Source: Endomicrobiales bacterium
GTDB taxonomy: Bacteria; Elusimicrobiota; Endomicrobiia; Endomicrobiales; JAFGIL01
Direction of reading: 5' to 3'
Assembly (NCBI GenBank): GCA_016929635.1
Contig: JAFGIL010000010.1
Span: 829-64,828 of the forward strand
Length of the DNA stretch: 64,000 nt
A program made the translations under genes and the position numbers. Under the pieces are notes generated by a model. The model made no database searches and was not told the origin of the DNA. It saw nothing but the letters and a program-made list of their open reading frames with translations. Positions 4,410 through 58,000 of the stretch are shown piece by piece (positions within the stretch are counted from its first letter, which is position 1; each line of letters begins with the position of its first letter).

Positions 4410-4420
4410 TATTTAAAAGA

Positions 4421-8594: not shown

Positions 8595-8596
8595 TT

Positions 8597-9709: not shown

Positions 9710-9734
9710 TAATATTTATTCCCTTTGTTATTTT

Positions 9735-11365: not shown

Positions 11366-12561
11366 TTTATTTTTCCGTTTTTTACCGCTCCAAAAACCAT
11401 TCCTGTCAGCCAAAACAAATCCATGGCTACCCTGGGGCCATCTAACAGCGTATCAAGAAAATCCCCAATGAAAATTCCTATGATTCCCCATATCAAACCA
11501 ATACATAATGTTCTGGTAAAAACCTCTTCTGATAAATACAATAAACGCAGTTTAGCCAGCATTGAATAGAATATCAAAAATAAAAGTATTCCACCTATTA
11601 AACCAAAATCTGCTAGAAAATTCAAGTAAAATGAATGCAAATGAGGGTGCCTGGAAACGTTCTTTCTGTTATCAGGAAGCTTTTCAAAAAAAGCTTTTTG
11701 CCTTTTTCCCTGCCCGGGCCCAAATCCGAACAAGGGTTTGGATTTCAACTCCCACAAAGCAACCTTATAAAGCGAAACTCTCTCCTGTATACTCCCCTCC
11801 CTGATAGTCGTATTGCGGATTCTTGCCCTGATATCAGGTGATAAAAACTGCAGCACCAATATAGCTAATAAAATCGAGGCGGTGCCTATTATTAACCTGC
11901 GCAAATTTACTTTCCTGTTCATGAAAATAAAAACACTAAAGGCCAGATATGTTAAAAAAGTGGATACATAGTATCCGCGGGAACCGCAAAGAAAAATTGC
12001 TCCGAGGAAAAACAAAGACATGAATAGGAATAACTTCCTTTTTGCACCCGAAAACTCGCTGTTATAAAGGAAGTGCGCCAGGGAAAAAAAGGAAAGCATC
12101 AGGCTAATAGCAGCCAATGCTATATGAGAATGCAAGCCCTTAAGCAGGCCTTCATGCGCCAGGTAAAAATCCTGCCCGATCGTCTTAAAAAACAAACCGA
12201 AGTACGCCAGAACTGAAAGCCCTATTAATACTGAAAAAGTTATATAGTAAACCCAAAACGAACGCCTGACTAAGAGAATATCCCCCAGCGCATAGCCCAG
12301 CATAAAGGGCAGAATCCAATGGCTGAAATATCCCATCATGGTATTGTATCCAATTACAGGTTCGGTGGAAAAAACCGTCCGCAACAAGCCATATATCATA
12401 AATATTTTCAGCCAAAAAAAGAATTTGTCGCTGCGCAGTTTCTTCCAAAAACTCCAGGATAAGAAAAAACCAATTCCGCTGACCGCATAGCCTGCTATGT
12501 GCGTAAAAGGTATGCTGAATGCAAAAATATAGTTTAGTATTTTTATTGTTTTTTCAATCAT
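11362..12561 (-). CDS. O-antigen ligase (WaaL/Wzy_C)-like polytopic membrane protein
   Basis: 399 aa, roughly 10-12 TM helices, GSRGYY and FGFGPGQG loops typical of the O-antigen ligase family. First gene downstream of the promoter at 12658..12686. Confidence 0.7.
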   Translation of the reverse strand: MIEKTIKILNYIFAFSIPFTHIAGYAVSGIGFFLSWSFWKKLRSDKFFFWLKIFMIYGLLRTVFSTEPVIGYNTMMGYFSHWILPFMLGYALGDILLVRRSFWVYYITFSVLIGLSVLAYFGLFFKTIGQDFYLAHEGLLKGLHSHIALAAISLMLSFFSLAHFLYNSEFSGAKRKLFLFMSLFFLGAIFLCGSRGYYVSTFLTYLAFSVFIFMNRKVNLRRLIIGTASILLAILVLQFLSPDIRARIRNTTIREGSIQERVSLYKVALWELKSKPLFGFGPGQGKRQKAFFEKLPDNRKNVSRHPHLHSFYLNFLADFGLIGGILLFLIFYSMLAKLRLLYLSEEVFTRTLCIGLIWGIIGIFIGDFLDTLLDGPRVAMDLFWLTGMVFGAVKNGKIK

Positions 12562-12977: not shown

Positions 12978-15900
12978 TTAACCAGCGGCCTCGATTGCCT
13001 GAAGCAATCCCGCCCTTGTCGGCTGCTGAAGGGTTTCAATAATGTTCTGCAGTTCGATTAATGGAATGGTCTCAAAATCCCTCAGATTACTTATCAGGGC
13101 TGCAATTGCATTCCTTTTCCTCCCTGCAATACCATCGTAAACAGCCGGAGGAATTACCCCTGATTCCACGATACTGCCGCAAATACTATCTCTTGCTTCC
13201 ATCTTGAGCCTTCTTGAGTATTTGACGCTAGTATCATACATGCTAAGGTCATCCAGATTTCCTCCGAGTTTATCTCCGTCAAGAGCTAACAGATTAAAGC
13301 ATAATATTACGTATGCCTGTCTGACCTGATCTGTCTCGAAGTTGCGATTCTCCATAGTTACATAACGATGTTCAATCATGCCAAGGCAGATTCCGTGCAG
13401 ATAGTTCATTATATCGGATAAAGTCTCAGACTGTTTTGCTTTATCGTCACTGTTTTCTATAATCTCGAGAAACCTGTTCATATCCTGCTTAAACCTTTTT
13501 TCATCAACCTCAAAACCTTTGCCGAATTTAATTCCTTCTATAGCAGTTCTCAACTCCCTGGCTGTACGGCGTACAGATACCTCATAATCCGAAGGTCTTA
13601 TCACATACATCGAAACAAACTCCATAAGATCCTGGACGGCCTCAACAGAAGGAACGTTTCTTCCGTGGAAATAACGCTGTCCCTGGGCTCTCATTCTTGC
13701 CGGCCTTGTCTTTCTGTCAGGAAGCAGCGCTATTGCCTTGCTGACAGTCTCACCGAACTCCTGAATCGTCACTCTTAAACGCTCAAAGATATCGCTCTCG
13801 GGAATATCAACCCTCATTATTTTTCTCTTTGCATCGACTCCTATGGCGTTATTCAAATACCTCATCAATTCATCTTTTTTAAGCCCTGTTCTTCTTATAT
13901 CTTCCAGAGTTGGAAGCGTAAACTCAACCGATGCGTTCTCATCAACAACCCCGAAGGACTCTCCCAAGGTTTTTGTCTGATGTCTGATTATTCCCAAGTC
14001 ATTCATGCTCTGTGCTATTTCTCCGTCACTGTAAGCTTCTGCATTATAAATAAATAAAGTGACGTATTCTTCCGGAACCGAAGCTTTCTCCTGTTGTCTT
14101 GCTGTTTCATTCTGAACTTGATAATCGTTCAAGAAGACATTAATATCAGTTACCAGAATATCTCCCGATAAATAGACATCTACACCCGTAAACCCAAGAG
14201 CCATTGCGACTTTAATAGAAGAATATAAAGACCTTGCATCCTTATGATCCGAAACAGAAATGCCCAGGCTTATCCCGTCAACCTGCGGCATGCTTCTAAC
14301 CTGCTCAAGCATCCAGAATGTGTAATAGACTCTCATTGCGTTATTTTCATAATCATTGTTATAACTCCTCATTACAGATTCATCATCAATTGTATCATCC
14401 AGTTCTCTCTGCCTCCTTGTAAGAGCCAAAGCCTGATGCTTCACATATGATTTCAGATCATCTGATACTTTCTCAACATAGTTTTCGAATGCGTCTTTTT
14501 GAGCGCCTCTTAAACTGACTCTTTCTGCAAGATACTCTTCATTTATCGACATATCTGCGTTAAACATATCTTTAAACCGTACTTCACCTGCCTGGCCCTG
14601 CCATATGCCTAATGCTTTTTGTGCATAACCATACAACTGGTCAACTGACCTGATTCTTCTTACTCTTCTGTCTGCGCTCATGAGGATGTTCATATCGAAA
14701 TCCATAACAACATCTGATTTTCCCGTGGTAACGGCAGACTGGTTTCTAACCTGGGTTGTCTTAGCTCCAGCATATGTCTCCAGGAATTCTTCGGAAGTCG
14801 CATCTATTGGAACTGTCTGACTAATCCTGTCACTAGCCTTGAGTTGTTTATTTAATGCCTCATTATCCAGCGATGACTGAACGTCTTTTTCCAACCCAGC
14901 ATATAAGCTCAATAAATTAGATAATATCATCCCACCAAACTCGTGTGCTCTCAGTTTTTTCTGCTCTCTGCCATAAGCTTCGAACTCATCTATTCTGGCA
15001 AGGACTTTTTCAATCCTTTTTATACCGGCCATCTTAAACAGCACGGATATGTCCGGAGCAAATGCCTGAATCTCTCTTGCCTCATTTAATAAAGCTTCAA
15101 ATTGCCCTCTTATATCGGAAATTGATCTTTCAACTCTTCCCCAGTTACGGTCTCTTTCCAGTGTGCCAGGTCCAAGTTCTCTGTATAATGACATAGTAAA
15201 TCCTGAGCACCTGGAGTGAGCTGATTTAATCCTTTTAACGAAACCTAATACCTTAGCTCTAAAATCTGCGACAATTTGTTGCGGTGCATATCCGGAAAAA
15301 ACCATTGTGCCCATTACGCCCAAATGGTCTACTGCTTTTTCTATGTCAGGAAACCTGATATCGTTTATTTCAACACGCAATTCACCTGCTATTGCAGGAT
15401 TCATTCCTGTATAAATCGAATCAATGTTTAAGGGCTTTTTCGTCCCTTTTACAGGAAGGCCCAGATCAACAAGTATTTCATTAAAACTCTTTCCGGCTTC
15501 TACGGAGTGTGTTACTATCTGATAGCATAAAACATAGTACAGGTTTTTCATCACACCAAGGTCCGCAAATCTTTCGGATAGTTTATCAGGTACTGCTATG
15601 TGCAGTTTTACTGCAAAAGTGCCGTTTCCTGCGTCTATTGTTTCTGCAAATATCCTGAAGTTCACGGGATTCCCGTCTATTTCCGCGACTATGTACGGTA
15701 CTCTATCTGCACCAGCGGTTAACTCAACAACATCTTCTCTAGCATCCAGTTCAGATTCGGTTGTTACAGCAAACCTTATCCTGTTAATACCTGCTTTTGT
15801 TAAATCTACATCTTGTTCAGTCAGCTTTTCCTCGTTCTCACCGCCATAGGTAAATACTACTGATGTTGTCCTTTCTGCATCAGGGTAATCAGTTCTTATC

Positions 15901-18900
15901 TCGGTATATCTGTCAAACAAATCCATCACCATATTTTTTGCAAGTTTGTGAGGGAAGAAAGTTCTAATCGAATCCTTATATGCATTCCATACAGGCCCGC
16001 TGAGTCTGCTTACAGGGCCTCGTTCAATTATTGAACGCACATCCATTGGGATAATATCCTCATGCCCTAATTCCAGAGCATGGGCAAGCTCGTGTTCAAT
16101 TATTGTGTCCTGCAGCCATTCAGGAAGCCTGGACATTAATTTTTCATTTAAATATATCACATGGCTTATAATAATATTCCCTTCACCTTCCGTAGAACCC
16201 GTCAAAGTTTTTGTCTCTGCTGGCGTTAGAAATCCGAGCCTTTCGGAAGTAGCAGTTACCTCAATATTCGGATTCTTTTCTTTAAGGATTTTTTGAACAC
16301 TTTCTAATTTCGCTTTAAAATGTTCACTTCTATCTTCCGTTTCACCTCTACCCAAGGCTGCGGCCACAACAGGAAATGTCAAAGGCCCGTAAATACCAAC
16401 AACAAATATACCTACTCCAAGGAATCCTCCAACTATCGCTCCGCCAAGGCCTACGGTTAAAAGCGCTATTATTGCTCCTATATTAAAAATGCCTGCCCCG
16501 GCAATAACTCCGACAGTAAGCATTGTTATGACTCCGCTTACTATTCCGCCATAAGCAGCAGCTGTCCAGGTTTTCGCATTACTCAAGCCATACCCTAACT
16601 CGCCAAAAACACTGAATCTCTGGTATGACGCTAGAACAGGAAACGTTAATCTTGTTAAAGCCGGTAAATTAAACGATTGCCCCGCACTTCTTCCGATAAG
16701 CCATAAAAAGAATTTCTGCACCCATCCAAGCCTTTGGTATTCATCCATTCTGTGAAGTTCCATTAACTCCGCATCCAATGCAGCAAGACTTTCGAGTATT
16801 TCTAATTGACGATCTCTGAGCTCATCCATTTCATCTGCGGAAACTGCTAATCTTGGGGCTCCCGGTTTTCTTTCTTTTGCATGTGCCTTAATTACTTCTC
16901 TTGCTTCTGCCAATTCTGACCGGTTTACCTGATGCCCTTTATCTGACATCATCAATCTATTCGCTCTGGATACAATAGCGTTTGCCTCATCCAGTGTCAT
17001 TCCAACAGCGATTTCCGGCACATCTACAACTGACGGCAAAGTTGACGGCACATCCTTTACTATTTGGGCCGGAGTAGCGTGTGTCACTTTGGTTACAGAA
17101 GCGCTAAGGGATCTTCTGGGTTTTATTGTCTTTTTTGGCGCGCTCAGAGCTTCCTGGATATCGCTGAGTTCACCATATAAATTTGCTGCGCGCACATAAA
17201 GCCTTGCGCGTTCTTCCTGTATTGCTAATTGTGCTTGTGTGAGCATACCTTCGCCGGAAGAAGAAACACTTGCAATCTGAGCCCTAACATAAGCTAACCA
17301 TCTCCTGAATTGCTCAGATTTTTCTTCATTCGATAAATTGCTGACTTGCACCATTTCCGGTGACAACATCTTTGCCCGTCCGGGAACTTTACTCTGCCTG
17401 GATGATGTGGTTCCATCGCTAACCTGAGTTATGCGTATATCTCCAAACCATGCCTGGATTTCTTCAGGTGTTGTATCTGCATCGGTTATTAATCCGAATT
17501 CAAAACCAGCCAAATCTGCCCTGTAACGCCACACCCTGTATGCTCCGTCTTGAGCCAAATTTGCCAGTTCAGCACCTCTTACTCCGGAATTATTCTGTAA
17601 TCCCTGATTAGGATTAGATTGGTAACCTTCGGTAAAAATCATAAAGAACCTTACTCCCTGTGTTTCTAGCGCAGATAATCCCTGGTCAACCTGAGCTATA
17701 TTAAGCCCTGCTGAAACCGGTGCAGGTTCAGATTCCGGGATTGGCGTTGACTCAGGCGGTGCTGCAGGTTCAGCTTCTTGCGAAGATTCTTGTGCAGGTT
17801 CAGGTGGAAGCTTTTCTGTTGTCCCTTTTTCTGGGAGTAATTCTTCCTTTGCAACAGCCTTTTTCCCTCCTTCCATCGATGATTCAGGCTGTTCTACAGG
17901 TACTAATGGAGATGCAGGTTCTGCAAGACCAAGCTTGGCTTTCATAGAAGGTGTTAAAATCCAACTATATGATTCAGGATATATATATCCAACTAGAACT
18001 AGAGTTATTAACGCGGGTAGAATCAATAGCACTCCTATAGTTGTAACGAAGGATCCGGATTTACCTGTAACACCTTTTCCATCAGCAGATATACTAAATC
18101 TCTCAAATAACCATTTAGAAGATAATATTGCAAATACCATACCTATTCCAGTAAATATACCAAGAGCTACTATTGAACCTATCAATATTTTTGTAAGCGT
18201 ATTGATAACTCCAGTAGCCTGTGAAATCATACCTATTGAAACTCCCGCAGTTGATAATAATGCAATAATAGCAACAAGACCAATAACTGTTACTAGTAAA
18301 CCTATAAATCCTGCAAAGAGCACCCTGGCAACACCTCTTGATCCTCTTATATTCGATCTGCGCACATACTGACCACCCCTATTCCATTGACCTGGACGAA
18401 ACCATGGATTTCCGGTCCCGTACTCTCTAGTAGATCCACTGCACCATATTAAATAAAATAAAATCACCCCAACTAAAATTACTGGAACAGAACAAACAGC
18501 ACCAACAATGAACCTTTTAAAAGGAGTATCCATGCCAAACGCATTTAAAATGTCTACAATTGGACCCGGATATTCTTCAGAACCTGTTTCTATCTTATCT
18601 TTTGGAGGAACTTCAGCTTTTACTCTTTCTCGTTCATAGTCTATTACTCCCCTTCTCCTCTTTGCAGGTTCGGCTAAGTCTGTATCAGAATCAACACTAA
18701 CTTGAGTTATATTTCTAATTCCTTGAGTTTTGATGATATCAACTATAGCTACTAGGGAATATCCACCTATAAACAGAAATAGAAAGATGGCACCTATAAG
18801 ATGACGTTTTCCTCTAAGCTTTCTGGCAAGCCATGCAAGACCAAGAAAAAACATAAATCCAACTACACCATAGGCCATAAGCTTTCTATGCGTTTCAGAT

Positions 18901-21900
18901 AATTGTGAGAAAAATGATGGATTACGGAGTTTAAAACCAAACTCTACTAAATACTTACCAGAAGAATGTTCATGTAACTTTAATTCTATTAAATACTTAG
19001 GATATGCATTTGGAGAAGTATCTGCACCACGTTTGGCAAAATCTTCGATTATTCTATCAACATCACCTTCATAATACTCACCTTCTTGTCCATCTTTATT
19101 ACCAATAGGTTCAGTATCAGGCAATTCTCCGGTATAATGTATAGTGTTACAATTTAATGCCTGAAAAGTGTTTGAAAGCACTTCTCTTACTTGAGGTAAA
19201 TCATTAACTTCTACAGTATCACCAACATTTATAAGTTCTGGTAATCCCGGTTCTTCTTCCGGCATTTCGGCTGGCGGGACTTCAATATCTACTTCTTTTT
19301 CTCCTTTTTTTTCTATTTCCCCAGTTGTGCCATCTTCTGAAATCGGTATTCCTTGTCTTGTCATACTGTCTTCAGATGAGGAAGGAGTTTCCATAGGAGA
19401 AATCTGAGGCGATGGTTCTTGTTTAGGTACCAGAAGACCTCCGATTATAAGTATACCTACAAGCAAAGCTGTAAGAAACGCCGAAGCAATCAATGTTGCA
19501 CCAACACCAGGCTCACTAGAAGCTGGCCTTTCTGTATTTCGCAGCCATAACTGCACTGTTGGCGGGGCACTATTAATTTTATCAGTAAATTCTACTACAC
19601 CATCTTTTCCCAGCTTGTGTTTATCCACATATTCAAGAAAACTATCATTATAATATTTATGCAAGCCAAAGCTTCCAGCCCCAGCCAGGAGAGTATACAT
19701 TAAGTATATTCCAATTGCTGCTGCTAAACCATAAGAAGCTACAAACGGAATTGCTAATGGAGCAAGAAACAGGGCTAAAAATGGAAAATTAATTAATAAT
19801 CCCAATCTGTAAAATTTCCCTTTCTTTGAATCGTATTCTGCACCAAGCGTGCCCTTATGCCATGTCATAAAAATTGCTGACAATACTACCCAGGAAAATA
19901 ATCCTGTAATTGCAGAAATACCTATCAAAGCAATGGTAGATATACCTAAAGGCAAAACAAAAAGCGCTAAAACACCCAGCAAACCAGCAGGAACTAATGC
20001 AAGAATTGCCAACAATCCTGTTTCTTTAAGAGGAGCAACAGTCCCGATTTCTTTCTTGAATTGTTTCCACGCAGCATCTTTTGCTGTTTGATCAGCACCT
20101 GCACTTTCGTATGCTTGCTGATAGTTTTGCAGACTTTCCTGATAGCTTACTGAACCTGGTAGTCCTGTTCTTCTATCGAGACTTCTTAATACTCCCCCTT
20201 TTCGTTCGATCCTTGCTTGATAAGTATTGACCCAGCGTTCATACACATTAAATATCAATACAACCATACCCTCTCTTAGTGCTTTATCCTGCCTTATATC
20301 TTCCGGGAAGAATTCAAGTATTTCCCGGTTTAATTGCGGCCTTTTCATTAAATTTCTTAAAAGCGCAAGCCTCTCAACATTCGATTTTCCTTCTAAATCA
20401 AGGCCGTAATTTTGGCAAATTAAAAATAGAATCCACTGCCCGAGCCTTTCTCTCAGATGAGCAGCGTTTATATACTCAGCTTCTTCTGGTAAAAATGCTT
20501 TCAATTTATCTTCACTTGTAGTAGCTAATAAAAATCTAACTAAAGGCTGGGCTTTTTCTTTGTTTGTCCTTCCCTTACCTCTCCTTTCTTCATTTTCAAA
20601 TTCCAGTTCCAACTCTTCTTCTATGGTAAGTAAATAAAGCCATTCTATAACATCTTTCAAAAATTGTTCATCCGTTCTTTGTCCAAACTCCTGTATAGCT
20701 TTTATCTCTTTTCTTCCCAATTTTAGCTTGTCAGTCTTTCCTTTAAGCAGTATTTCCAAAACTCCCTGCAAATAATTTATTCCATCAGCAGCTTTAAGTT
20801 TTCCAAATTCAGTTAGAATTCCCCTCTGGAATTGTGAAATCGAAATCAATTGCATCCTATAGCGTGCAACTACTCCCTGTACCTGAGGGACAATATAAGT
20901 GGGCTTTTTTGATAACCTATCTTGTAAAACATCTAGATATACTAATTTATCTGGAATGAGTAATATTTTATCCAGATTTTGCATAACTTGATCTGTATTA
21001 GTAATGTCATAACTTACATATTCCGGCGATAATGGAAACGGATCGGCTGTCAATAACCACTCATTAGGATTGTGTGTAATATTCCATGCGGTATGGGCTA
21101 TGATGTTTGCGAGTTGCTCTACAGTCAGGCCTTTTGCAGCTATTGCGGGGTTTGTAAAGCTCAGCCATTCATCTATTGATGCCAATACTAAATCCGCTAA
21201 ATCTTCAGGATTTAAACCTTCCAGTGCATCGCGCTCCAATTCTGATAAATCATCTCTGTCTTCTATTACAGCTCTTGCTACTCGAATAGCTATTTCACGT
21301 GCATTCTCACTATCCAAAGGTGTTAATTTTCCAAGAAGGTCTCCGGCAATATTCATTGAAGTCTGTATGAATATCATACCGCGTGTAAGCGCGGCTTTAT
21401 CGCTTTTCGGGCTGTGTTTCGATAGAAATGCCTGAAATATCTCACCTTGCTCGCCATTTTGTGCATAGTCTGCCAATGCTGCTGTCACCTCATCAAGCTC
21501 TGCAAGAGGTGCAAAACGTACAGATGCCTCTTTCCTGATTCTTCCAAGCTCTTTTGCATCCAGTTTAGCTGCCTGTTCTTTGGTTACTGTTATCTGTGCC
21601 AGTTTCTTATTGTCTACAATAGCTCTAAACGCTCTAAGAATTGGGTCAGTCTCAGGTTTTAATTCAGGGCTTATTATCTCTAGTCTAACACTACCTTCTT
21701 CATCAATATAAGCCAGATCAATATAAAGCCAATGCCTGCGTCCGGGCAGATTTATCTGCAATTCAATAGGATCTTCAGTGAATAAATTCGCAATTCCTTC
21801 TCTAATCATTGCTTTATCGCTTTCTGTAGGTAAAGGATATTCATTCCTGCCAGCTTGTAGATTGGCGAATTCAAACAATGCTTTAGATAGTTCAAAGACC

Positions 21901-24900
21901 AGGTTTACCAGTTCCTCCTCTTTTGTTTCCCTTTGTGCCATGAATTCAGCGCTTGTTTCTTCGTTAAACCTTTCAGCCATCATTGCTGATAGGTATCTTA
22001 CCATGCCTAATACCTGCAAACTTTTTTGCCTCTGCGCCTTTGTTTCCGGCTTGAATCTCTTTAAGAGACGCCCGTACTCCATCATCACATATTCCCTTAG
22101 TGTAGCAGGGGTTGCAAGTTGTGCACCAAGTCCAACTTGTGATAGCTCGCCAGGATCATCTGCATTAAGCCATTCAGTCCTATTACTTCTTCTTTCAAGT
22201 GGCTGCGCGTACCTTTGTATATTCGCAAAATCACCGTTAGCATCAAGAAATATTTTATATCCTGCACCTTCTAACTGCACTGTAATATCTCCAGTGCTAT
22301 CCCTATGCCATGTTAAATAACTTCCCAATTTGCTTGGATACGTTACTCTATTTTCCCTAACAATCAGAACTCCTTTTTCTATAAGATTAGTTGCAACTTT
22401 TGCAAACTCATTTGTATCCAAATCTTGTAATTCATCTTCCCGAAGTGTGTCATCTCGTGTAGCAATAATTTGTTTAGCAACATCCGACATTGCACTTTCT
22501 TCAGTCTCCGGCTCAACAATACTTGATAAAGCACCTGCCTCCGGCGTGCCAATTGAATCTACATCATTTGCCTCTATAGCATCAAGGAAAGCCTGACGGT
22601 TTGCATCCTGCATGAAAGCCTTCCTGGATATAGTAAATGTCCCAAGAAGGTCCGGGTCAAGAGGCGTTTCTGCTTCCGGTCGGGACATACCTTTTTCTCC
22701 TCTAAGCACACTATAATAAGCTGCTTTAGGGCCTGATATTTCCAGCATCCACTCATCAGATTCTCTATCCATGAAAAACCTTACTCTTTTTATTGATGGA
22801 TTAAAAGTTGCAATTTCATCAGCAAAATGTATTGCCAAATCAACAAAATCCTTAAAATCTTCTAATAAATGGTATTTATCTCCATCAGTTCCTTCAACTT
22901 TAACATCATAATTGACAAAGTATTTATCTTTAAATGCAAACAAATCTACACCTTCTAAAACTGTACGAACAAGCTCTCCATGAAAACCGGTTATACCCGC
23001 AGATACTGCATGGTCCATTGCTGCCTGCATACGACCTTCTTGTTGAATCCCGAATTTTTCAAGTATTACCGGCACAAACCTGTCATGCGTAACAGTAACA
23101 GTCCTTTGTGCAGTAACAGCACCTCCATGTCTTCCACCTTCTATTGTTGCAGTAAGTATTCTTATTAATCTAGAAACCATGGATTCCCTGGCATTTCTCT
23201 CGACAAGATCCACTAAATAATCCCCTGCTAATTCGCCGGCCGCATATACTCTATTACCAGTTAAATCATTTAAGCTTAAATCCATTCCTGTCCTAACTTC
23301 GTTTGGACTGACAGCTGCACGCCAAATATATGCTATCGGACTTTCTGCGGGAGAAATTTGCCCTAGTGGAATACTGTCATATATAACAGGATACTTACCG
23401 GTTGCAGCCCGTAGTATAGTCCGCAGGACTGCTTCATTTCCTGTTTCGCGGGCTCTGTTTATTGTATACAAATCCAGGTCGCTTAAAAATGTATCTCTGG
23501 TTCTGTCTTCATTATAAAGATTTTCGACAAGCACTGCTTCCTGCGTTGAAAGCCCGGCTATATGTATTAACAGAGGGTACGCTATTGCCTGGGCAATAGC
23601 GTTGGGGCTTGCACTGTCAAGAAATCCTTCCAAAAGATCTATACTAAGAACCAAACCGTCTTCAGTAGCCCTGAAATTAACCATTGATACACCGGGAGCT
23701 GTTTCATTTTTACGTGTAAAAGTATCGCCAGGCACTTTTTTAACTTCAACTTTTACCCGCAGTCCTTTATTAATCCCGGCTTTTAACTCTACTGTTTCTC
23801 CCTCCAGTGCCTGTACTATTGCTGTATGCTCAGCTTGAGTGCGTTCACGAATAATATCCTGAACTTCATTTATTAATCCAGCATCAACTTCCTGAAGTTG
23901 GGATTCCCTTATTCCTTTACAAATCCTTTGTAAACCAACATCACTGTCTACAGTCTCTCCCAGTCCTATTCTTACTGCCTCATAAACTTGCCTGCCCGAT
24001 AATTTATTAAGTCTACCTTCATAATACTCAAGGAGTCTTCTTGCAAATAACTTCATACGTTGAGAAATAACATCATCTGCTGAAACCTCTCTCTGCATAA
24101 TAGTTAATAATAGATTCACCTCTTCCTGCAAAAGGATAGATGGTATATCTGATGTTTTTTCACCATGTTTCCTTTCCCCCCAAATTGTACTATCCTCATC
24201 AAACTCCATTAAATTTGGGTATCTAAAATTAACATGAAAACGCTCATCAAACCTCAATACTTCAAAAAGGTCAGAAAAGAAACGAATAGGCCTGCCCTGA
24301 TATTCAGCAATAGGTTGCTGGTATTCCCGTAAAACTGCCCAGGCAAAATTAATTACCTTCTCTGTTGGAGTTCCTTGATACTTTGAAGGTATCCCGTCTG
24401 GATATGATTCCACACACGCATATGACAGCAATCGTTGCACAGCATCACTGGACAGGGGTCTGTCAATCAAAATCGAAACAGAGAAATCTCCGCTGACTAC
24501 ATCAGCAACAGAAGGCCAACGTGCTATTATAACACCACCCTGTTCAAGTAAATCGCGGATTCCTTGAACTCCTTCACCTACAACTCTATTCTCAATTTCT
24601 TGTCGCTTTCTTTCTTTTTCCTGTCTTGCGAATTCTTCTGTATAGCCGCTCGTGCTTATAGTTCTACGCCTCGCCGTTATTTCTACCACATGGCCTTTAT
24701 CAAATTTGAATGTATACGTCTGTTTTTCAACAGTTACAGTAACTTCACCTCTGTCAACTAATCTACCAGCGCCAATGATATCTTTCAATTTTTGCGTTGG
24801 GACAACGTTATGCTCTATACGTCTTCCCTTAAAAAGAGTATCCTCGATAATGGTTTCTACTTCAAGAAATCCATTACTAATTAATTCCTCTACAACAGCT

Positions 24901-27900
24901 ATATCATCTAAATCCCCGGCACGTCCCAGTATTTCACCAAGTTCTATTGCTTCAGCAGATTCTGCCATTCCGGAAGGCTTAGCTTTAGCAGCCTCAACTA
25001 CATTAGCTTTCAGCAAAGGAAAACCCTGGGTGTTAACCTTATTTCCTTTTAAAGCATTAACTACAACAACTATCATATCAATCAAATTATCATCCGCTAC
25101 TTCATCAAAAGTTTCTCTATCAAAACTATAAACTTTTCTGTCTATTGCTTCCCGCACTTTTTCTGCAGTAATTTCCTTGCTTTCCTGGATTACGTCATCC
25201 TCTAAAACGTTTCCTAAATTGAAATCTATTCTAGAATAATCTGACTGCGCAACTACTACTCCCATAACCCTGTTAAATACTTCTTCAGGTGAAAATTCAT
25301 AAGTAGTCCTATACACACCAAATGTATATTCCTCCTGCTTGTTTTGATAAAAAATAGCAGAAATCGAAAAGCCACGCAGCATACCTTCCCTTACTTTAAC
25401 TAGATATACTTCTTTACCAATTTCAATAACACCCAAACCGATTCCATTGCCTATAAGATTAAGCAGTTTTTTTGTTGGCTGAAATTTATCTTGCCCTATA
25501 TCACTTCTTGTTTTTTCCAAATAACCTGCTTTAACCAGTTTAGATGCCGGAGAAGCCCCCCCTTTGCCAAAAAACAGCCTTGCATCAGGTGTGACCAAAT
25601 TGTGGATTCCATGTCTGACGGCGTTTGCAAGATACATAGCACCCAGCGCCAATCCTAAATTACCACTTAATCCCGCAACTATCCCTCCAACTAACAATGT
25701 CCAAAAATTTACAGCTAATATGCCTCTTGCCCGCTTCCTCTGCGCTTCATCATAATCCCCTGATAGAACTAAAATCAAAGACCTTTTGCATAAAATTATC
25801 ATATTAAACATTATTAGATTTACTGGAGAAATTCCGGCAGCCATCAATGCCCAACTAGTAACACCTTGAAATATTATCCACGTACCTGCTATTAAACTTT
25901 TAGCAACAATCCTAGAAGTAGTATCTGTCCCTTCCCCTCTGTGTAATTCATGAAATACTTCCGGTACTAAAAAGCCCAGAAACTCAACAATTGCCGGAAA
26001 GATAACAGTTACAAACGTACCTTCTTCATCCAATCCCAGTTTCCCCGCTATCCACTGGCCCATTCTCTCCGTAATTGGAAGCATTAATTGTTCACTATCT
26101 ACAGCAGTGGCGACGAGTGTATCACCAGATTGAGGAGCAACAGGATGACGTTTCAGCCATTCATCCATTTGTGCTAACCATTCATCTATCTGAGAAGTTG
26201 TTAACTCCACACCTGCGTTTTTTAAAGTAACCATATGGTCTGGCGGGGCTGTGTTAAGTTCTGTCAAATCAATAAATAGTTGATCATCTAAGTCTGTGAT
26301 TGCCCTTATAAGCTCCCTTGTCATTACCTGAAGTCCGTCTTGCTCTGCTAAACGACTAAGAAGAGATTCAGTTTCTCCGGTTTGTTCACGATTTTTTACT
26401 AAATTACGAATCATCCGCGCAATTTCCGGCTGATATATCTGCAATCTTAAATATTGCACAGCCATTTCATTGCCGCCTTCCTGTCGTAGTTCCTCCAGAA
26501 ACCGCGGTAATGTTTTTAAACTGTCAATTTCTGCCAAAATCGTTTCCGGACTAACAATAGTGACTTTACCTAATGCTCGATTCTGCGCCAACTTTGCTCT
26601 ATGTTCTTGACTCTTATATATAGCTGCTAACTCATAATTCCTAAATACTTCCCCGGCAATTCTTGCTAGTTCATAATATATATCACCGATATTAGCCCAT
26701 ACAACATCAAGTTGAGGATTTAGCAAAGCAGCTCTCCTGAAATGCTTTAAAGCTTCCCCTGGATCATAACTTTTATAACAAGTACCTAACGCATTATGAT
26801 AACCTGCTTCCTGCGGATTTGCAGCAATAAGCCTTTCGATGACTTCAATACGTTTATCCGTTTCTCCTGTTCTGGAATAAACCCTATCCAATTCCTCAAG
26901 AGCGTTTATATGATTAGGATTTTGTTCTAAAGCTACTGTGAAAAACATTTCTGCATTTGTTAAATATCTGGACCTGTCAGTTTCTGATGTGCCTGCTAAA
27001 TCCGCTAATTCATAACTCACTACCCCGGAGCGATAGTATGCTTCAGAATTGTTAGGATTAAGTCTTAGTGCTTGAGAATAAAATTCTAAAGCTGCTTTAT
27101 AATTTCTAATCCTTTCATACGCATAACCGAGATTAAACCACACAGCTGCTTCACGAGGTAGAATTATCGTTAACTCTTTATAGACTTCAGCAGCTCTTCT
27201 ATAGTATCTCTCCGTACCACGCCTTAAACAGAGTAATCCAAGCCTGCTCAATAAGGATATATCCTTTTGCTCAGGAGATTGTTCATTTGATAACCTTACT
27301 GCTTCTTCATAACACTCAATCCCGTCATCATAACTGCCAAGATTACTATAGCAATCCCCAAGAGCTGACCATGCGTCAATCCTGTCAGGAGCAGCTTCAG
27401 TCAGTCTTTTTAATACATACTCTGCGCTTCCGTAATTTTGCTGGCCCAAATAAATGTTAGCTAAATCAACTAATGCCGCAACATCTTTATATCCTGTTTC
27501 TGCCAATCTTTGCCTTAATGCATTGATTTCACTACCTTCATCCTGCACCGGGGCAGTATGTTCTGTACCATCTCTCTTTCCTGTAAGTGCAACTTGCTCT
27601 AAACCCTGGTCAAATCCCAACAAAGTGACAATCCTATTTACTAATTCTAAATTTTCTTGATCACCATCAAAATAACTTAATGCTCTTTTAAATTTTGCAA
27701 GAATATCAGCATTACTAAGATGCATTTTAATCATACCAGAAAGTTCACCACTTTCTTCAATAATTCTTAGAGCTCTTAAAGGATCTATTTGTATTAAAAT
27801 TATAAAGCTTCTAACTCTTGATACATTTACAAGTAATTCAGCTCGTGTTTTTGTTACCTCTTCTAATGCATCAGCAACTACTTGTGATTGCAGATTTGCC

Positions 27901-30900
27901 ACATCTACGCTTTCTAACCGTTCCAGCAAATACACAATTTCAGGTCTATGATTCGGTCTTGTACCTTCTATGCTTACACCTAAACTTTCTAAGAAATCTC
28001 TTATACTCTTCGCTTTATTGCCATCATCTAAACCTTCTGCTAACGGAGAAATTAAAACCCGTAATATAATAGCTATATCATTTATAGTTAAGCGTTCTAA
28101 ATCTAAATCACTTAGTCTGCCTATTAGACTATCTACATCCGCAATAAAGGCAGTATCTAATGAAGACGAAATATCCACGGGCATAACTCCTGCATCACTT
28201 CCTTTTAGTCCCTCTAAAACACGTGGAAGTACTTTGAGAGATTCACCAACTGACAAACCTAAACCACCAACCAAATCATGGATTAGAATTAATGGTTTAT
28301 CATCATCCAAAGTTTCATCCAGTTCATCCAACATATCTCTTAAAGTTGGATCTAAATACATTTCAACATAATCTTCTACATCTTCAATAGATAATGTACC
28401 ACCATCTACTAATTTTCTGAGCCTTTCTGCTAGTGTATCTGCTGCATCTTGACTAACAAATAGTCTTTCCTCCGGGTCATGCGTAAGGTTCCATGCGGCG
28501 TGGGCTATGATGTTTGCAAGTTGGTCTATAGTCAGTCCTTTAGCAGCTGCTGCGGGATTTGTAAACTGCAGCCATTCATCTATAGATGTTAATACTAAAT
28601 CAGCTAAATCTGTAGGATTTAAACCTTTCAATGCTTTACGTTCTGCTTCTGGTAAAACCTCTTTGTCTTCTATTATGGCTCTCGCCACTTTAATCGCTTT
28701 ATCACGGGCGGTCTTACAATCTGTAAAAGTGAGTTCTCCTGCAATGTTTATTGAAGTCTGGATGAATATCATACCGCGCGTCAACGCATCCCTGTCGCTT
28801 TCCGGGCTATGTCTTGATAAAAATTCCTGGAATACCTCTCCGTTTTCACCATTTGCAATATAATCTGCCAATGCTGCTGTAACGTCATCAAGTTCCGCTA
28901 CAGGAGCAAAGCGTTCAGCTGCTTCTTTTGCATATATCTCCAACTCTTCTGGCTCTAATTCTTCTAACGAACGTCCGTACTTTAACAACACATACTCCCG
29001 TAATGTACCACGGGTAAGAATTGGCACACCAACACCTGATCCAACACGAATAGGACGGAAAAATACATCAGGTGCAACATGTCTATCATCAACTCCCAAA
29101 ACCGCTGCAGAAGCTTCTAACTCTACTTTCTGTCCAATCTCCAATTTTGCCCTTTCCAACAACTGATCAATTGTGGAAGGAGACATTGTTATTGCTGATA
29201 AATTGGAGCCCTGCCTTCGCGACAATATATTAAATAAAGGTACCGAATCCGATGCACCATCTATATGAATGCCTGGACACTCCGTACCAACTCTTTCCAA
29301 TGCAGATAAACTTACATTTTTTGACACCCCGGTTGGTGTTTCTACTACAAGAATGCGTTCTAAAATTTCTTTATCCAACGCTTCTTCAATGTCATCCAAA
29401 AAACAATATGGAGTAATGGTAACCAGTATGTTGTTTTCCGAGCAGTAATCTAAAAAAGCCATAAACTTAGATTTATTAGCTCTTAATTCAACGGGGAATT
29501 TTTTAGGGTCAAGGAATTCATCCAAGATTGTATCCCAATCAAAAGAAATCACGGCAACGGGTTTTTCCGGTATAAGCTCCCTCGAATCGTATGTCATATT
29601 AAATGCTGTGTGGGCACAGATATTGGCAAGTTGCTGCGCATTAAGATCGGAAAGATTAAGGTTCACAAGCCTTAAGCCCCTGAGTGTGTTTACAATTATC
29701 TTGATTATTAACAGAATTCTGTTTTGTTTTATTACAGTTTCTTCCTGCAGGATTGCCTTTGATATATCCCTTGCAACCCTAAACAGAGCAAAAACATTTA
29801 CAGAGTTCAGTGAGGCTGTTTCAACAAGAACTCTGTGAATAATGTCAATACCGCTTGCAAGCCTTAGGCGTTTATTAGCCCATTCGGCATCATCCATACC
29901 TTCGGGCTTGTGTGCATTGAGGAACCTATTCAATTCTGCATAGGAATTACGGCCTATTGATTTTGCAGCAACAACCGCCGATACATTCCCAAGTTCATCA
30001 AATATTTTCTCTAAATCACCCATCTCGGCTGACGGTGCATACCGCTCGGATGCTTCTTTTTCGAGTCTTTCCCGTTCTTTTGGATCTAACTCATCCCAGC
30101 TGTCCCACTTGGCTTGGCCATATTGTAATATCACGTAAGCTTTAATATTGGCTTGTGTTGTTAGTCTTTCATTGCGATACGGTTCATATACTGCATTTAC
30201 CAGCTGAGTAGCTTCTTTTGCAAAAGAAGCCTGGTTAATGTCTGTGTGGAAATAGCGCACTAATTTTCTGTATACTTTCTTCTTCGTCATTTGCGGGTTA
30301 ACTGAATTTAATATAGTATATGTTATTGATTGCGGCTTCTGCGCGACAACGGCTTGTATAACTTGTGCTATTTTAACCAACATCTCTGCATTAAAAGTTA
30401 TCCCCTCTGGATATGAATCTCTGGAAAGAGCATCCTGAATAATCCTTATTACACGCCCTAACTCTGTTAAATCTACTGCAAGTTCATTACTGCTGTATGA
30501 ACTTAGATATTTTTCAAGCTTTTTGTAAGCATCCATCTTGGGATCTTGTTCTTTCGCTTTTGGTGCTGCTTGTTTATATTTTTGCTCTGGTTCGTTAGGA
30601 ATACTTCCAAAAAGGTGTTCTAACAGATTTTTCCACTTTTCGGAAAAAGTTTCCAGAGCACCAGTAATCTCAGTGAGATTACATTGCGCAAACAAACTGG
30701 CGAAATAATCTGCAGTTGGATCTAATATATCTTTAATAAGTATCGTATCCATCTGCTGTATTAAAAATAGAATAGCAAGAGGCCTGTCCCTATCTGACAC
30801 ACCTGCTAAAAATCTATTTACCTCATAACCAAGCTTCTTGAATTGAGCAAGCTCCTGTTCGGTATAACCGGCAGTTATAGGAATCTCTAATGACATACCA

Positions 30901-33900
30901 TTAACATTAACGTGAACAGATAGTTCATAAAACGTTTCATCATGAAGAGTATAATTTCTTATGCGGGTATTCCGCGTTTTAATTGCACCCTCTTCACTAC
31001 GCAGATATAAACCTCTCAATACAATATATAATCTCTGCGCTAATTTTGCATTATCTAACTCATCCCTCCTCTCTTCAGCTTCCGCTAAATATTCAATATA
31101 CCAGGGATTAAAATATAGGTCCATTCTACTAGTTATTTCTGCCATCTGTATCGGCTCAAAAAATGCTGGGACATCAGTCTTAATAATATTTTTGATTTTC
31201 CATTTTTTCTCAATAGCTTGTAATAAAAATTCAATTTCTTCGCTTCTGCCATGCAAGACGGTTCTTGTATCTAGCAGCTTCTCAATATCATCAATGACTC
31301 CTCTTAAAACAGGAATTCTTGCAAGGTCATATCCTTTTTCCACGAAGTCAATTATCTGTGAAGCATAGGCGTCTAACTGCTGATTTCTATCCATCATCAG
31401 CAATGAAGGTACGGCCCTGAGTGCGATGTTTTTGCCTTGTTCCACCCTTGATTTATTAGTTATTACGAACTTTCCATTGCTGTATATAATAGAAGCTTCT
31501 GATATTGTTGAGAGCGAGGAATTGGGAATGCTCAATATCTGCATACCGCCACTGCTGGAAAATTCCAGAGAGGTTTCTTTCTCTCTTACTCCTACTGAAC
31601 CCACAATACTGAAAGGAATGCTTTCATCACCTGCAACAACCGTTGTTGTAAATTCCTGTCCTGTATTGGGATCAACATATCTTATTTCCAATCCGTCATC
31701 TGTATGCCTGTATTCAAGCACTGACCTCTGGCTTGCGCTGCCAAGCCAAATATGCCCTGCTGTGCCTTCAGGAATAGACGCATCAATTCCTGGCTCTATC
31801 ATAAAAGATGTCGGCGTCTGCATTAAAAGCGGTATAGCCATATTTCTTGCCATGTTAAGGCTCTGCATATTAAACCGCATATGAGTAACAACATTTGCAA
31901 CCCATATCGCGGTTTTTGTAGGCATCCAAAACAGCAACCCGCCCCAAATACCTGACCTGGTTGCGGCCATTATCATTGCCCTATTGATTTCATCGAGTCC
32001 GATTTCCCGTTCTTGTCTATAAATATCCGATAATCTATGGCCTCTATGAAAGTCTGCTACTTGTTTGTTGTTTATAGTTGGCAACAGGTTTACAGCATTC
32101 AGTGTAAGATTTTTTACTGAATCTAAAACAGGAGAAAAACCCAGCATAGTGGTTATCTGTCCTGACTCCTTGATTGCCGCGATACGAACTGCCAGCCCTA
32201 GTATAAACCACTGGCCCCTGCTCAAACCCGCATTTGCATAGTAGTTGCTGACAATATTTCCAAGGTCTCCGAATAAAAATCTGAGCACAAATCTGTTTTT
32301 CAGCCAGGAAATCGTCTCATTGTTCATAAGAGTTGCTCCCGGCCTGCTTCTTAAAACCTCTGTAGCATACGGAGATAGAGTAACACGCTGTCCATTGACA
32401 TCAACTGTAGCAGAAACCATTTCCGCTTCTTCCTCTTTCTGTTCCGCTTTTCTGGTTAATTCATGAATCTCATCCAATTGGCTTCTTCTCAGTTCCTTTA
32501 AAACGTTTAAAAACCTGGTGTGCCCGGGAATAGCAGCCTCTTTTGGAGTGGATGCTGCTATCTTGGCGTACAACGCCTCTGCTTCCGCTATTTTGTTGCT
32601 GTTGTAAAACGCACTATTAATAGCTGCCTGGCACCTTCTGTGCAATTGCAGCAGGCCCTGATAATCATCTAAAGGCGGGACTTCCCATTCTCCCAGCCTT
32701 AATGAATCGACTAACGTTCTCCTTTGGGTGGCCAGGCATTCAACAAGGAAATGAATCTGCATCCTCATCCGGCGCGGAACCTTATAGGAATACATCAGCT
32801 GTACCAGATCCCTTAACTTACCGATTTCCTTATCCAGCGGGAGGATGGCATCACCAATGTTAATACGGTCTATGTTAGACTGTATCTGGTCAATCTTGGC
32901 AAATATAAGCCCTAGCCTTTTTTTCTGGACGTCGCTAATATTTGGTATAGCATTCACTCTGTCCCTTAACGCCCTGCGTATTTTTTCAAGCACTGCGGGC
33001 ACCTGTTTTTTCCTTTTACCCACTTCCAGGTTCTGCAGTTCAGGATATTCCTCAGGCTTAGAGAATGCTTCCGATTCAACTATCAACTGGGCTATGGCAG
33101 ACTCCCATGCTTCTAAATCCTGCTGCTGTTGAGCACCCAACGATGCCGGTACAGCTCTTTCGTAATATAGATCTATTTCCAAATCTCTTATGATTTCCAT
33201 TGCTTTATAAACATCGCCATTATCAAGCGCAGCTTGAGCTTGCTTTATTTTACCTCTAAAATCCGGCTTGTAGCTGCCAAGCTCTTCGATCCATTGCGAA
33301 AGGAGACCATGCATGTTTTGAGCCGGCACTCTAGTCCTGCGGCCGGAAGCTATGGACTTCATAAGCTCTATAACAAAAGCTCTTTTCCCCGATCTGTTCA
33401 ACTTCTTCATTATTTCCCTTATTTGATTAGAATCATACTCATAAACTTCCATGCCTCCATACCACCACTGGAGGTATTCAATGTTTTCCGAGCCGCGCCA
33501 ACCGCGGTATTTATGCAAGTTTAGATATGCATGAACTGCCCACGATAATAGAGCGCCTACCATAATACTATTCGCGATAAATAAACTTGAACCAAAGCCA
33601 AATGCAAACCTCTGCCAGAATCCCCTGCTGGCAAGGACATCTGCTGAAAACGCAGCCCTTATCCAGCCAAGAATTCCTGTCCATCCTTTTTCTGCCATAA
33701 CAGCTCTGATATTTGCCCTTACATCAGGATGCAGCACAGCAAATATCCATCCTATCAACAATGGTGCGATAATGCCTGTTGGGTCAATGAATGAAGCAAC
33801 TAACGTGCCAATGGTCAAAGCAAAAGTTTCAATAATCGGAGCGCCTATAACAGGATGTACCACACGGTACTCTATTGTTTCCCATCCTGTTAATCCTTCT

Positions 33901-55091: not shown

Positions 55092-58000
55092 CTACGCAGC
55101 GGAAGTTATTGCCTGATGCAAAGCAGTATCAAAGGAGTCATCCAGCAGGTCTTTTAATGATTCTTTTATTTTCAAATCCCTGATTTTATCTATTATTCCA
55201 AGCAGATACTGTTCAAATTCAGCATAAATCTGTGCCCTATCGCTGACTGCTGCCTGCTCGTATATCTCTTTGTAGCTTAAAACCCTGCGCCTGATGCCGT
55301 CAAACACTACTCTGTCTCGCTTAATATCTTTTTCTGTTTTAACAGTAAACTCTTCTTTATCAAACTTAGACAATATTTCAGCTATTTTCTGCCCTTCACT
55401 GACCTCATCAGACTCCTCTTCCAGTATTCCTAAAATTTCATTGAAAAGCTCCTCATGCAATTCCTTTACTTTAATACCATGATCAAACTTATATCCTAAA
55501 TTATATGCTTCCTTTTTCTTCTCTTCAGGAGTCCTGGGCCCCATAATATTAGTGATTAAATTCAAAATCTGAAGTTCTGCAACCTGCGCCCTTGCAACGC
55601 TTTCTGCTTCCGCAAAATCATTATCCAGCGTTAACCATACGGCTCCGGACTTACCGGCTTTTAACGTTATATTCCTTATCCTGGTTTCAGTTTCTTTATC
55701 CACTACAAGCTCAGTAAAGTTAAGTTTCAAAGCTTCATTCGAACCTTCGGCTACTTCAGGGATTTGATCAGGATCTGTAATAAGATGTTCTATCACAAAA
55801 GAACCGTACCTGCTTTGAATTATATTCTTAATTTCCTCCGCATTTCTGATATCAGCCCCAAAGGAAATCGAAACAAGGAAATCTTTATCATCCATAAGAT
55901 TGAATAAATCCTGGAAATCACTAAAATCCATTCTGCCTTCCAGATTTATATTAAAATGTACCCCATCAAAACCTAAAGTTTTTATAAGTGTGATTTTATC
56001 CGTATTTGATAAGTCTTCTATACTGGATATATTGCATCCTGCGACCAGTTTCTTACCGGATTTTCCAGCAGTTTTTACAAGCATACTTATTTGTGATTGC
56101 ATGGCTTTATCTTTATCTACAACCGCCTCTTTAGGAGCCATCTCTGAACCCATTTCTTCCATCTCACCCAGCTGAGATTCATCCAGCCAACCCAAATTTA
56201 AAGAACCATTCTCAACCAAGTTGTCTATCCGCACTATACCGCTTCTTTCCATTACAGATCCATCACTGGGTTTGCTGATTAAACCGGCTATATCCGTTAT
56301 TGTATTTATTCCTCTCTGCCAGAGTCCAACTTCAACTGCAAGACCGGTACCTCTTGCAAACGATTCAACTGATTTCTGCCTTGCAATCTGGCATAGATCA
56401 ATCTTGAACTCTTCTATATCGTCTTTTCCCTGAATGATATGCGCGTTGCCAAGCAATGTATCTCTGTCTATCTCATCAACAGAAGTTTCAGGTGAAGAGA
56501 TATTAGGGATATCCTGATCAAATCCTTCTCTTCCAGCAGAAGAAATAACAATATCCGGCATAAGCAGGCTTCCATCCTGGAATCTACTCGGCAATCCCAG
56601 TTCTTTAAGCTGCCTGACTAACCCTCCGTTCTTGTGCACATTTTTCCAGAACTCAACTGCCAATAATCTTAAAAGGGCATCTACATCCAAATCTTCAATG
56701 TCTCCCAAGACTTCTTCCGGATTTTGTATATGCAAATTAATTGCGGAACCGTTTTGAGTAGGTATAACTTCAGCCCAGACTCTAAAGGCTTTTGCAGCTC
56801 CTTCATAGTTAAGCACTAAATTAGGTTTCAACTCCAAATAATCTTTCACCTGCGAGCTTTCCGCATAACCGGCAAACCTGATAACATTGAATCCTGCTCC
56901 AGCAATGGCATTCATCCTGTCTTGTGCAACAGTATCCGTCTCCCCTGAATCATTAATGAAATATACTGTTGGTGACTGCGCCACACCAAAGTTTTCCCTT
57001 AAAAATCTGCATCTATCCATCGTATTTTTAACTACTTTTTTCACCAAACTTTTTATACTTACCGTCTTTCCCGCTATCTCAATCCCGCTGATAACAGCAT
57101 TCGGTGTATCATGTTCGGATCTGAATTTGTCGGCTATTACTTGAACTACTCCTGCAAATATTCCCTGTGGGGATCGGGCATTCCTTTCAAAAGATTCTAG
57201 CAGCGGGGCTTGTGCTGCCACACTGCCCAATGCCGCTAAAACCGGAGACTGGCTGTATTTTAATTCTGGTTTAATTGGGACATTTTTTGCAGGATTATAT
57301 TCACCTATATCCAACAATACAGCCTTAGCAGCTTCAGAAAGTATCAAATTCGAATCATTCTTCATTCTATCCTCTACTTCCGATATCAAAGCAAAAATAT
57401 GGCTTTCAGAACTCCTATCCATACCATATTTCGTAAGCCACAGTTCGATTACTTGTCTTTTAATCTTTCCTATCTGTTCTCTATTTTCTGCTTTTGTATC
57501 GGTAACCTCTTCGAAGTGTTCCACATCATAAAAATATGGATGCCCATCCCGAACAATAATATTAAAAAGAAAATGAGATGAAACAAAATACCCGCATTCA
57601 GCAACTTGATCCCCGATAGCTTCTAATTCTCTAAAAAACTCCCAGGTTATTTTCCCTGCTTCTTCCGAAAGGCCGTATAGATTATCACCTTCCAAATACT
57701 CCATTAGAATTGCCCTTCCCCAATATTCACCTGTTTCACTCTTTTCATCCAGTTCCGGAGCTCCTGCAACTTTATTCTCATTCAGCTTATATAAAATCTG
57801 CATCTCCTTGAGGAATAAATCCACAAAACGTTCATGCCTGCATAATTTTAACAGCTTTACTTTCGGACTTCCAACAGAGTCTCTGTCTGCGTTATCATTT
57901 ACTATCATCCCAAAAGCATTAACTCCCCTGCCGGCAATATCTATGAGCTGCAAATTATCATCTATTTCCCGGACCAAATGGTACTTCAATATCTGCGGTA

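Follow-up and report, generated by a model that had tools for sequence, protein, structure and literature searches.

A rare C-terminal domain shared by giant proteins of Endomicrobiales

Huge proteins are frequent in Elusimicrobia and Omnitrophota (PMC11573180). The giants of the Omnitrophota, called ‘Archaeovorins’, carry many transmembrane (TM) helices, and the domain list in their description includes TPR, PPDK_N, HAD and HEAT (10.1101/2023.11.21.568195). Here we analyse a window of 64,000 nucleotides (nt), meaning the whole stretch of DNA under study, from contig JAFGIL010000010.1 of an Endomicrobiales bacterium. It contains two giant genes, A and B, whose products share a C-terminal cassette with a third giant, P0004, found on another contig. 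Our preferred reading, to which we assign a probability of roughly 0.55, is that this is an old, lineage-restricted C-terminal cassette carried by three otherwise unrelated multidomain giants, one embedded in the membrane and two apparently soluble.

A and B are alike to the Archaeovorins in having very long, non-repetitive open reading frames (ORFs) and large unannotated stretches, and A also in its many TM helices. From the Archaeovorin domain list, TPR is found in A and PPDK_N in B (10.1101/2023.11.21.568195). However, the hallmark combination of SecA_DEAD and HEAT has no match in either protein, B is also devoid of TM helices, and the Archaeovorins exceed 30 thousand amino acids (aa) whereas A and B comprise 7.8 and 2.9 thousand. 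There is no sequence relationship, as the profile of the shared module described below matched no others in 1.84e9 proteins, and term searches of the Archaeovorin paper (10.1101/2023.11.21.568195) found no description of a shared C-terminal cassette.

The two genes are as follows.

12978..36479, minus strand: giant gene A, 7,833 aa (MBN1621174.1; NCBI name ‘tetratricopeptide repeat protein’)
55092..63839, minus strand: giant gene B, 2,915 aa, GTG start at nt 63839 (MBN1621191.1, JW871_01205)

Both are present in NCBI as proteins of an Endomicrobiales metagenome-assembled genome (MAG), on a contig of 64,833 bp, and the independent Logan assembly SRR13394437 covers the 3′ end of B over 8.6 kilobases (kb) at 99.99% identity. 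The genes are co-directional and 18.6 kb apart, close to the 19 kb given in a preliminary description that was made by eye, and the peptides quoted there are all present where it had placed them. The reading frame of B is open up to the window end, so that its true start is uncertain. Residues of B are counted here from the codon at nt 63996-63998 (2,968 aa); subtracting 53 yields the product numbering.

The similarity between A and B is concentrated in one module of about 170 residues, which was delimited by BLASTP, shuffled controls and profile analysis.

15435..15965, minus strand: shared module in A, aa 6839-7015
56571..57068, minus strand: shared module in B, aa 2311-2476 (2258-2423 of the product)

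A composition-adjusted BLASTP comparison of A with B returns one significant high-scoring segment pair (HSP), with 28% identity over 173 columns and E = 5e-8, which joins aa 6839-7011 of A (nt 15447-15965) to aa 2311-2472 of B (nt 56583-57068). The next-best HSP has E = 0.43, leaving a single one below E = 0.4 in a comparison of 7,833 x 2,968 residues. The best Smith-Waterman score is 121, against 64 ± 8 (maximum 84) for 100 full shuffles of B and 64 ± 6 (maximum 82) for 100 shuffles in blocks of 40 aa; the module alone reaches z = 18. The homologous module announced in the preliminary description is thus borne out, with an alignment clearly better than shuffled controls. Its anchor pairs (VVFTYGG/TVYFINDSG, AGINRIRFAV/AGFNVIRFAG, NFRIFAETID.../AFRVWAEVIP... 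and LVDLGLP/LKELGLP) lie within the HSP in the order proposed. The upstream anchor pair AKNMVMDLFDRY/VKNTMDRCRFLRE also falls inside this HSP, although the pairing suggested for it is 4 residues out of register. We consider with high confidence that the modules of A and B are homologous.

The module represents 2% of A and 6% of B, and once it is masked the best A-B score drops to 73, inside the shuffle range. No DNA similarity was found between A and B, which indicates that the duplication is old and rules out a recent duplication or gene conversion. Each protein carries one copy: neither the three giants nor the ORFs of the window, taken in all six frames, contain a second module. The columns that are invariant over the three modules are mainly glycine, proline and hydrophobic positions, together with D18-R19, R24, T34, N61 and E70, and the three-module alignment contains no conserved histidine, cysteine or serine. 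In comparisons with curated families at E ≤ 10, the modules return noise only (BACON 0.067, DUF7483 0.13), and the cassette has no NCBIfam match.

The third member was identified by an exhaustive HMMER search, in which the two-sequence module profile (A and B) was run against 1.84 billion representative proteins at E ≤ 1e-3. Four proteins passed, namely A, B, P0003 and P0004; A itself scored E = 9e-108 and P0004 E = 7e-5 over the whole library. P0004 (MBN1622309.1) is an Endomicrobiales MAG protein of 3,040 aa encoded on another contig of 35,123 bp. All pairwise module comparisons are significant, with z-scores of 18.2 for A-B, 14.2 for A-P0004 and 7.5 for B-P0004. From A to B the accession number rises by 17, one more than the 16 genes between them; the numbering is therefore sequential along the genome. 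The accession of P0004 comes 1,118 after that of B, and P0004 probably belongs to the same MAG as A and B. A third giant with the same element points to a small family rather than to two unrelated oddities. The paralogous family of giants that had been proposed for this locus consequently holds as a family, while its confinement to one locus does not, the third member lying on a different contig. The catalogue search recommended at the same time yielded three members, all of them giant, and one further match that is an artefact.

This further match, P0003 (1,023 aa, E = 1.5e-5), was rejected as a family member: it consists of ten identical immunoglobulin-like (Ig-like) repeats worth 4.2 bits each, whose summation produces the low E-value. 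The module of A aligns with one such repeat at z = 5.5 and the module of B does not; the similarity is probably compositional (T/A/G/D-rich).

Other searches returned no further members. A word-indexed catalogue of 5.8 billion clusters was queried at E ≤ 1e-3 with A aa 6760-7060, the three-sequence cassette alignment and A aa 5400-6830; it gave no matches, and the query proteins themselves were also not recovered. Cassette alignments run against species-representative genome contigs and JGI metagenome contigs produced pattern matches, none of which was confirmed, and tblastn against phage and plasmid records found no match. No curated family reached its gathering score for the cassette (Pfam-A on A and B; NCBIfam on A, B and P0004), and the module profile had no match among PDB sequences (best E 0.8). 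By these searches, A, B and P0004 are a set of three giants that share a previously uncatalogued, very rare orphan domain.

The conserved region extends beyond the module. In A, B and P0004 the module is located 490-820 residues before the C-terminus, and the whole cassette is 650-1,000 aa long. Five features describe its post-module part and tail.

13260..14852, minus strand: region of the cassette that follows the module in A (aa 7210-7740), with its homologue at aa 2469-2971 of P0004
14127..14273, minus strand: block ‘ISLGISVSD...LGFTGVDVYL’ in A, aa 7403-7451, the sole post-module stretch that aligns with B
55899..56048, minus strand: matching block ‘LVAGCNISS...LGFDGVHFNINL’ in B, aa 2651-2700, inside a weak KDGP_aldolase match
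12981..13007, minus strand: C-terminal tail of A, LLQAIEAAG, with 5/9 identities to the tail of B
55095..55121, minus strand: C-terminal tail of B, LHQAITSAA, with 5/9 identities to A and to P0004

Between A and P0004 the post-module homology covers ~530 aa with a BLASTP E-value of 4.5e-15, so that their C-terminal 800-1,000 aa are homologous throughout. This pair served as the positive control for global alignments with fixed anchors, one where the module ends and one at the C-terminus, and gave z = 11. With the same procedure, the post-module region of B gave z = 2.4 with A and 2.8 with P0004, compared with -1.2 to 1.0 for four negative controls. Against all real-sequence windows the true pairing ranked first in 4/4 comparisons, with small margins and overlapping windows. 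The LGF block of A and B is also recovered in a three-way MAFFT alignment of A, B and P0004. In B it lies within the KDGP_aldolase (TIM-barrel) match at aa ~2631-2741, which has E = 2.8e-4 and is below the cut-off. Taken as a whole, the post-module homology of B is suggestive.

The extreme C-termini provide a further resemblance. When the last 9 residues are right-anchored, A and B share 5/9 identities, a level reached at a background of ≤ 4e-4 among 13,754 internal 9-mers; B and P0004, the latter ending in LIAQITFAA, also share 5/9 (background ≤ 1.5e-4). The pattern common to the three giants is L-x3-I-[ET]-x-A-[AG], and it was found at the end of 0/29 other ORFs of the window. As P0004 was picked through the module alone, its tail constitutes an independent confirmation of the similar ends. 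The similarity of the C-terminal ends noted in the preliminary description is therefore confirmed for the last 9 residues and lost for the last 150 aa taken as a block (shuffle fraction 0.37). That the cassette architecture includes B is, in our view, somewhat better supported than not by these alignments.

N-terminal of the cassette, the three proteins all differ: A is polytopic with a TPR array, B has a dikinase-type ATP-grasp domain, and P0004 has HD, S-adenosylmethionine (SAM)-methyltransferase and DUF218 domains. The features of A that lie outside the cassette are listed below.

26646..27539, minus strand: TPR array of A, aa ~2981-3278, the sole Pfam-level domain in this protein
16353..16556, minus strand: last TM cluster of A, aa 6642-6709, ~130 aa before the shared module
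16059..16169, minus strand: zincin-like motif of A, aa 6771-6807, HELAHALELGH (HExxHx5H), ~40 aa upstream of the module

A begins with a hydrophobic signal or anchor, followed by ~20 further hydrophobic helices in four clusters (aa ~898, 3487-3604, 5490-6163 and 6642-6709). The segment after the last cluster is K/R-rich, and self-BLAST detects no internal repeats. HELAHALELGH, at aa 6796, is the only HExxH in A and is situated after the last TM cluster and before the shared module. Its spacing is the same as in the minimal zincins of the SprT-like and YgjP-like families, while the matches of A remain below the gathering scores: 17.3 bits against a cut-off of 25.6 for SprT-like (E = 0.0043) and 17.2 bits against 26 for YgjP-like (E = 0.0055). 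The motif could belong to a self-processing or substrate protease. Since it is absent from B and P0004, it falls outside the shared cassette.

The corresponding features of B are two.

59601..60443, minus strand: phosphoenolpyruvate (PEP)-synthase-type ATP-grasp domain (PPDK_N) of B, aa 1186-1466, Pfam E = 1.4e-29
60669..60854, minus strand: possible phospho-histidine swivel domain of B, aa 1049-1110, a weak GWD1_pHisD match

PPDK_N scores 103.9 bits against a cut-off of 27, which identifies the ATP-grasp of PEP-utilising dikinases, and the domain matches PEP synthases in the PDB with E-values down to 9e-17. The match to GWD1_pHisD is sub-threshold (E = 0.002, 18.1 bits against a cut-off of 27). 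PEP-utilizers_C has no Pfam match in B, where the weak KDGP_aldolase match (E = 2.8e-4) is all that was returned. The PPDK_N ATP-grasp relates B to the family of PEP synthases and alpha-glucan water dikinases. In the latter a phospho-histidine-like domain precedes the ATP-grasp, and the same order is seen in B (59601-60854), the phospho-histidine match being weak. In contrast, bacterial PEP synthases have the order ATP-grasp, swivel domain, TIM barrel. B also differs from both groups in that its domain sits within a 2,915-aa protein and scores far below the equivalog cut-offs. No convincing TM helix or signal peptide was found in B, nor any TM helix or signal peptide in P0004.

The window has a guanine-cytosine (GC) content of ~0.39 and a uniformly negative GC skew (-0.05 to -0.31), and over its full 64 kb the family-matching ORFs of at least 150 aa are all on the minus strand. 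Judging by Pfam gene content, with genes for lipid A, 3-deoxy-D-manno-octulosonic acid (Kdo), the lipopolysaccharide (LPS) core and SecD/SecF, it is a chromosomal fragment of a Gram-negative-type bacterium. On one side of A, Pfam identifies LptC, a lipid A acyltransferase (LpxL-like), KdsC-, KdsA- and KdsB-like enzymes, a PfkB kinase (RfaE-like), DUF3108, a HAD phosphatase (GmhB-like) and LpxK, beside which stand several glycosyltransferases (GT2/GT4), a PIG-L deacetylase and an O-antigen-ligase-like protein. After A come two sulfatase-family membrane proteins, three GT9 heptosyltransferases and the Kdo transferase (WaaA), and then SecF, SecD, an HD protein, a HEAT protein, TGT, a second HD protein and B. 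The 23.5 kb of A thus lie within a long series of genes for lipid A, Kdo, heptose and the LPS core (445-12561 and 37261-47558), all of which run in the same direction. These flanking genes hint at an envelope-related role for A.

Several observations on the genes themselves can be added. Third-position GC is 0.33 in A and 0.31 in B, below all 20 neighbouring genes tested (0.34-0.47), which could reflect low expression, a different codon-use selection or a different origin. The 55 nt before the ATG of A (36480-36540) hold a 12-bp GC-containing hairpin and a T-run on the minus strand, which look like the terminator of an upstream 172-aa ORF. An AAGGAG ribosome-binding site is present 7 nt before this ATG, and there is no room for an obvious promoter. 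The two sulfatase-family genes are distant paralogues (24% identity, E = 7e-17) separated by an IS200-like Y1 transposase (39875-40570; Y1_Tnp, E = 1.8e-8). The two HD-domain genes (50688-51374 and 54150-54818) are paralogues as well, 44% identical with E = 3e-72, and flank the YajC, HEAT-repeat and TGT genes.

How far the relationship between A and B extends is the first question to be weighed. That their similarity would be due to chance or to a compositional bias of two very long sequences is practically excluded. Long proteins do offer a large search space, and P0003 illustrates how weak repeats can sum to a low E-value; against this, the E-value of 5e-8 is composition-adjusted over the full search space, the score of 121, where 200 shuffles reached at most 84, refutes such an origin, and the third member was found independently, at E = 7e-5 over the whole library, and shares both the C-terminal position and the tail. 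Descent of A and B from one giant ancestor, with several modules kept along the length (HExxH, TM-proximal helices, module and C-terminus), is highly improbable and largely refuted. The main module and the tail are real, and the HExxH-context windows are somewhat above shuffles. However, this context, which the preliminary description regarded as shared, scores 40 in a segment chosen by eye, where the shuffle fraction is 0.0065, and is not among the BLAST HSPs at E ≤ 10; B lacks HExxH, its segment has no zincin match, and it has no strong TM segment. The TM-proximal helix motifs quoted as recurring are at chance level (shuffle fractions 0.22 and 0.99). The single HSP below E = 0.4 and the module-masked score of 73 within the shuffle range agree with this, as do the differing domain contents, TPR and ~20 TM helices in A as opposed to the ATP-grasp of B. 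The claim of several shared modules along the proteins could hence not be maintained: the C-terminal cassette alone is shared, with no other significant segment pair, and the relation of A and B, as their alignments indicate, is a paralogy of a shared domain (the cassette) and not of whole genes.

What the cassette does is a separate matter, for which described C-terminal elements offer several models. Sorting and secretion domains (type IX C-terminal domains, type I signals, exosortase-type tags) likewise combine a conserved C-terminal element and a terminal motif on unrelated large proteins. An export or sorting signal read by a dedicated secretion machine, as in type I or type IX substrates, would account for the conserved C-terminal region and the extreme C-terminal tail on giants that are otherwise unrelated. 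The proteins are also acidic and Cys-poor (D+E 14-17%, Cys 0.3-0.5%), a composition typical of type I secretion substrates. This explanation is nevertheless unlikely. The 64-kb window contains no ABC transporter, membrane-fusion, TolC-like or sorting-enzyme gene. As a test for type I substrates, RTX or Ig-like repeat arrays were sought: there are no internal repeats and no such Pfam matches, and no transporter gene in the window. Models of the Por_Secre_tail and PEP-CTERM type have no match in the cassette (NCBIfam on the last 1,114 aa of A and on the whole of B and P0004; Pfam on the cassette of A and B), and no other sorting domain was matched. The cassette has neither a TM-plus-basic tail nor cognate machinery in the window and is far longer than sorting domains, with its module 490-820 aa from the end, far from the positions of known signals. 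Moreover, A is a polytopic membrane protein and the ATP- and SAM-dependent domains of B and P0004 are typical of cytoplasmic enzymes, so that the proteins look cytoplasmic or inner-membrane. Polymorphic toxins show the opposite organisation, a conserved N-terminal trafficking region with variable C-terminal tips, whereas the giants have variable N-terminal bodies and a conserved C-terminal cassette. The cassette could otherwise be a shared catalytic unit, e.g. a divergent (beta/alpha)-barrel with an accessory domain, that performs the same chemical step in the three giants and is coupled in each to other upstream enzymes; we hold this to be doubtful too, if slightly less so than export. The weak KDGP_aldolase match in B speaks for it, together with the motif [beta]-helix-LGF[TD]GV-[beta] common to all three proteins, which is reminiscent of the two beta-alpha units at the start of many TIM barrels; in the structural model, itself of low confidence, strands and helices alternate there, and genes of LPS-core and lipid A biosynthesis flank A on both sides. 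On the other hand, the KDGP_aldolase match is below the gathering score and has no counterpart in A or P0004, the hhalign comparison of this block reaches only E = 0.016, the module shows no evident conserved catalytic-type residues, and the model (pLDDT 38) is too poor to trust. Among the known sorting-tag, docking and enzyme families tested here, none includes the cassette.

We therefore return to an old, lineage-restricted cassette on three giants. Under this reading, an old unit, now at 25-30% identity, would have been duplicated within one Endomicrobiales lineage, where its copies either became fused to different multidomain giants, three in all, or stayed at their ends. Neither B nor P0004 has a signal peptide or a TM helix, the enzyme domains that they contain depend on ATP and SAM, and the segment that follows the last TM cluster of A is K/R-rich; the cassette is therefore most likely cytoplasmic. 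By its residues, the module suggests binding or assembly more than catalysis: those that are invariant are mainly glycine, proline, hydrophobic residues and D-R, R and E, with no conserved histidine, cysteine or serine. The cassette may act as a common handle that brings the soluble giants together or joins them to the membrane-embedded A; alternatively, it may subject all three giants to one recognition step. Docking modules, such as dockerin and cohesin or the docking domains of polyketide synthases and non-ribosomal peptide synthetases, also place a small shared terminal module on large multidomain enzymes. The likeness is purely analogical, with no sequence or fold match behind it. A shared role in assembly or targeting is a tentative suggestion of low confidence.

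A number of points weigh against this reading. An hhalign comparison of B with the post-module region of A and P0004 finds a 48-column block around LGFTGV/LGFDGV at a weak E = 0.016, and a hidden Markov model of the A and P0004 post-module region does not detect B. AlphaFold predictions, computed with three sequences only, have a mean local confidence (pLDDT) of 38 for the cassette (1,009 aa) and of 49 for the module (177 aa), the latter with a predicted template-modelling score (pTM) of 0.49. The low-confidence module model shows two N-terminal helices, a helix-strand unit, a three-strand antiparallel meander and two C-terminal helices; Foldseek found no PDB structure at E ≤ 0.001 for it, which at pLDDT 49 is a weak test of the fold. 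The labels ‘non-catalytic’ and ‘binding’ are drawn from residue patterns alone, and the attribution of P0004 to the same MAG from consecutive accession numbers only. Finally, three sequences define the family, which makes conservation statistics thin. Within these bounds, the sequences indicate that the homology is real, narrow and very rare, and that a new orphan cassette marks three giants.

Giant bacterial genes are mostly unannotated and offer few handles for study; a short delimited domain with a terminal motif is such a handle. The module could be expressed alone for tests of self-association and partner binding, and it also provides a search key for further members as catalogues deepen and related genomes are added. 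A bolder and improbable extension is that the cassette, made up of module, variable region and tail, represents an undescribed recognition system for giant proteins, with B and P0004 docked onto A, or all three routed through one machine, in a lineage-specific envelope-building mega-complex. If this were true, soluble megadalton enzymes, B and P0004, would be joined to a membrane giant whose gene stands between LPS-core and lipid A genes. If the cassette is merely an orphan domain, it would be a modest addition to domain catalogues; should it prove to serve assembly or targeting, it would reveal the way in which a bacterium with a small genome organises its very large proteins.

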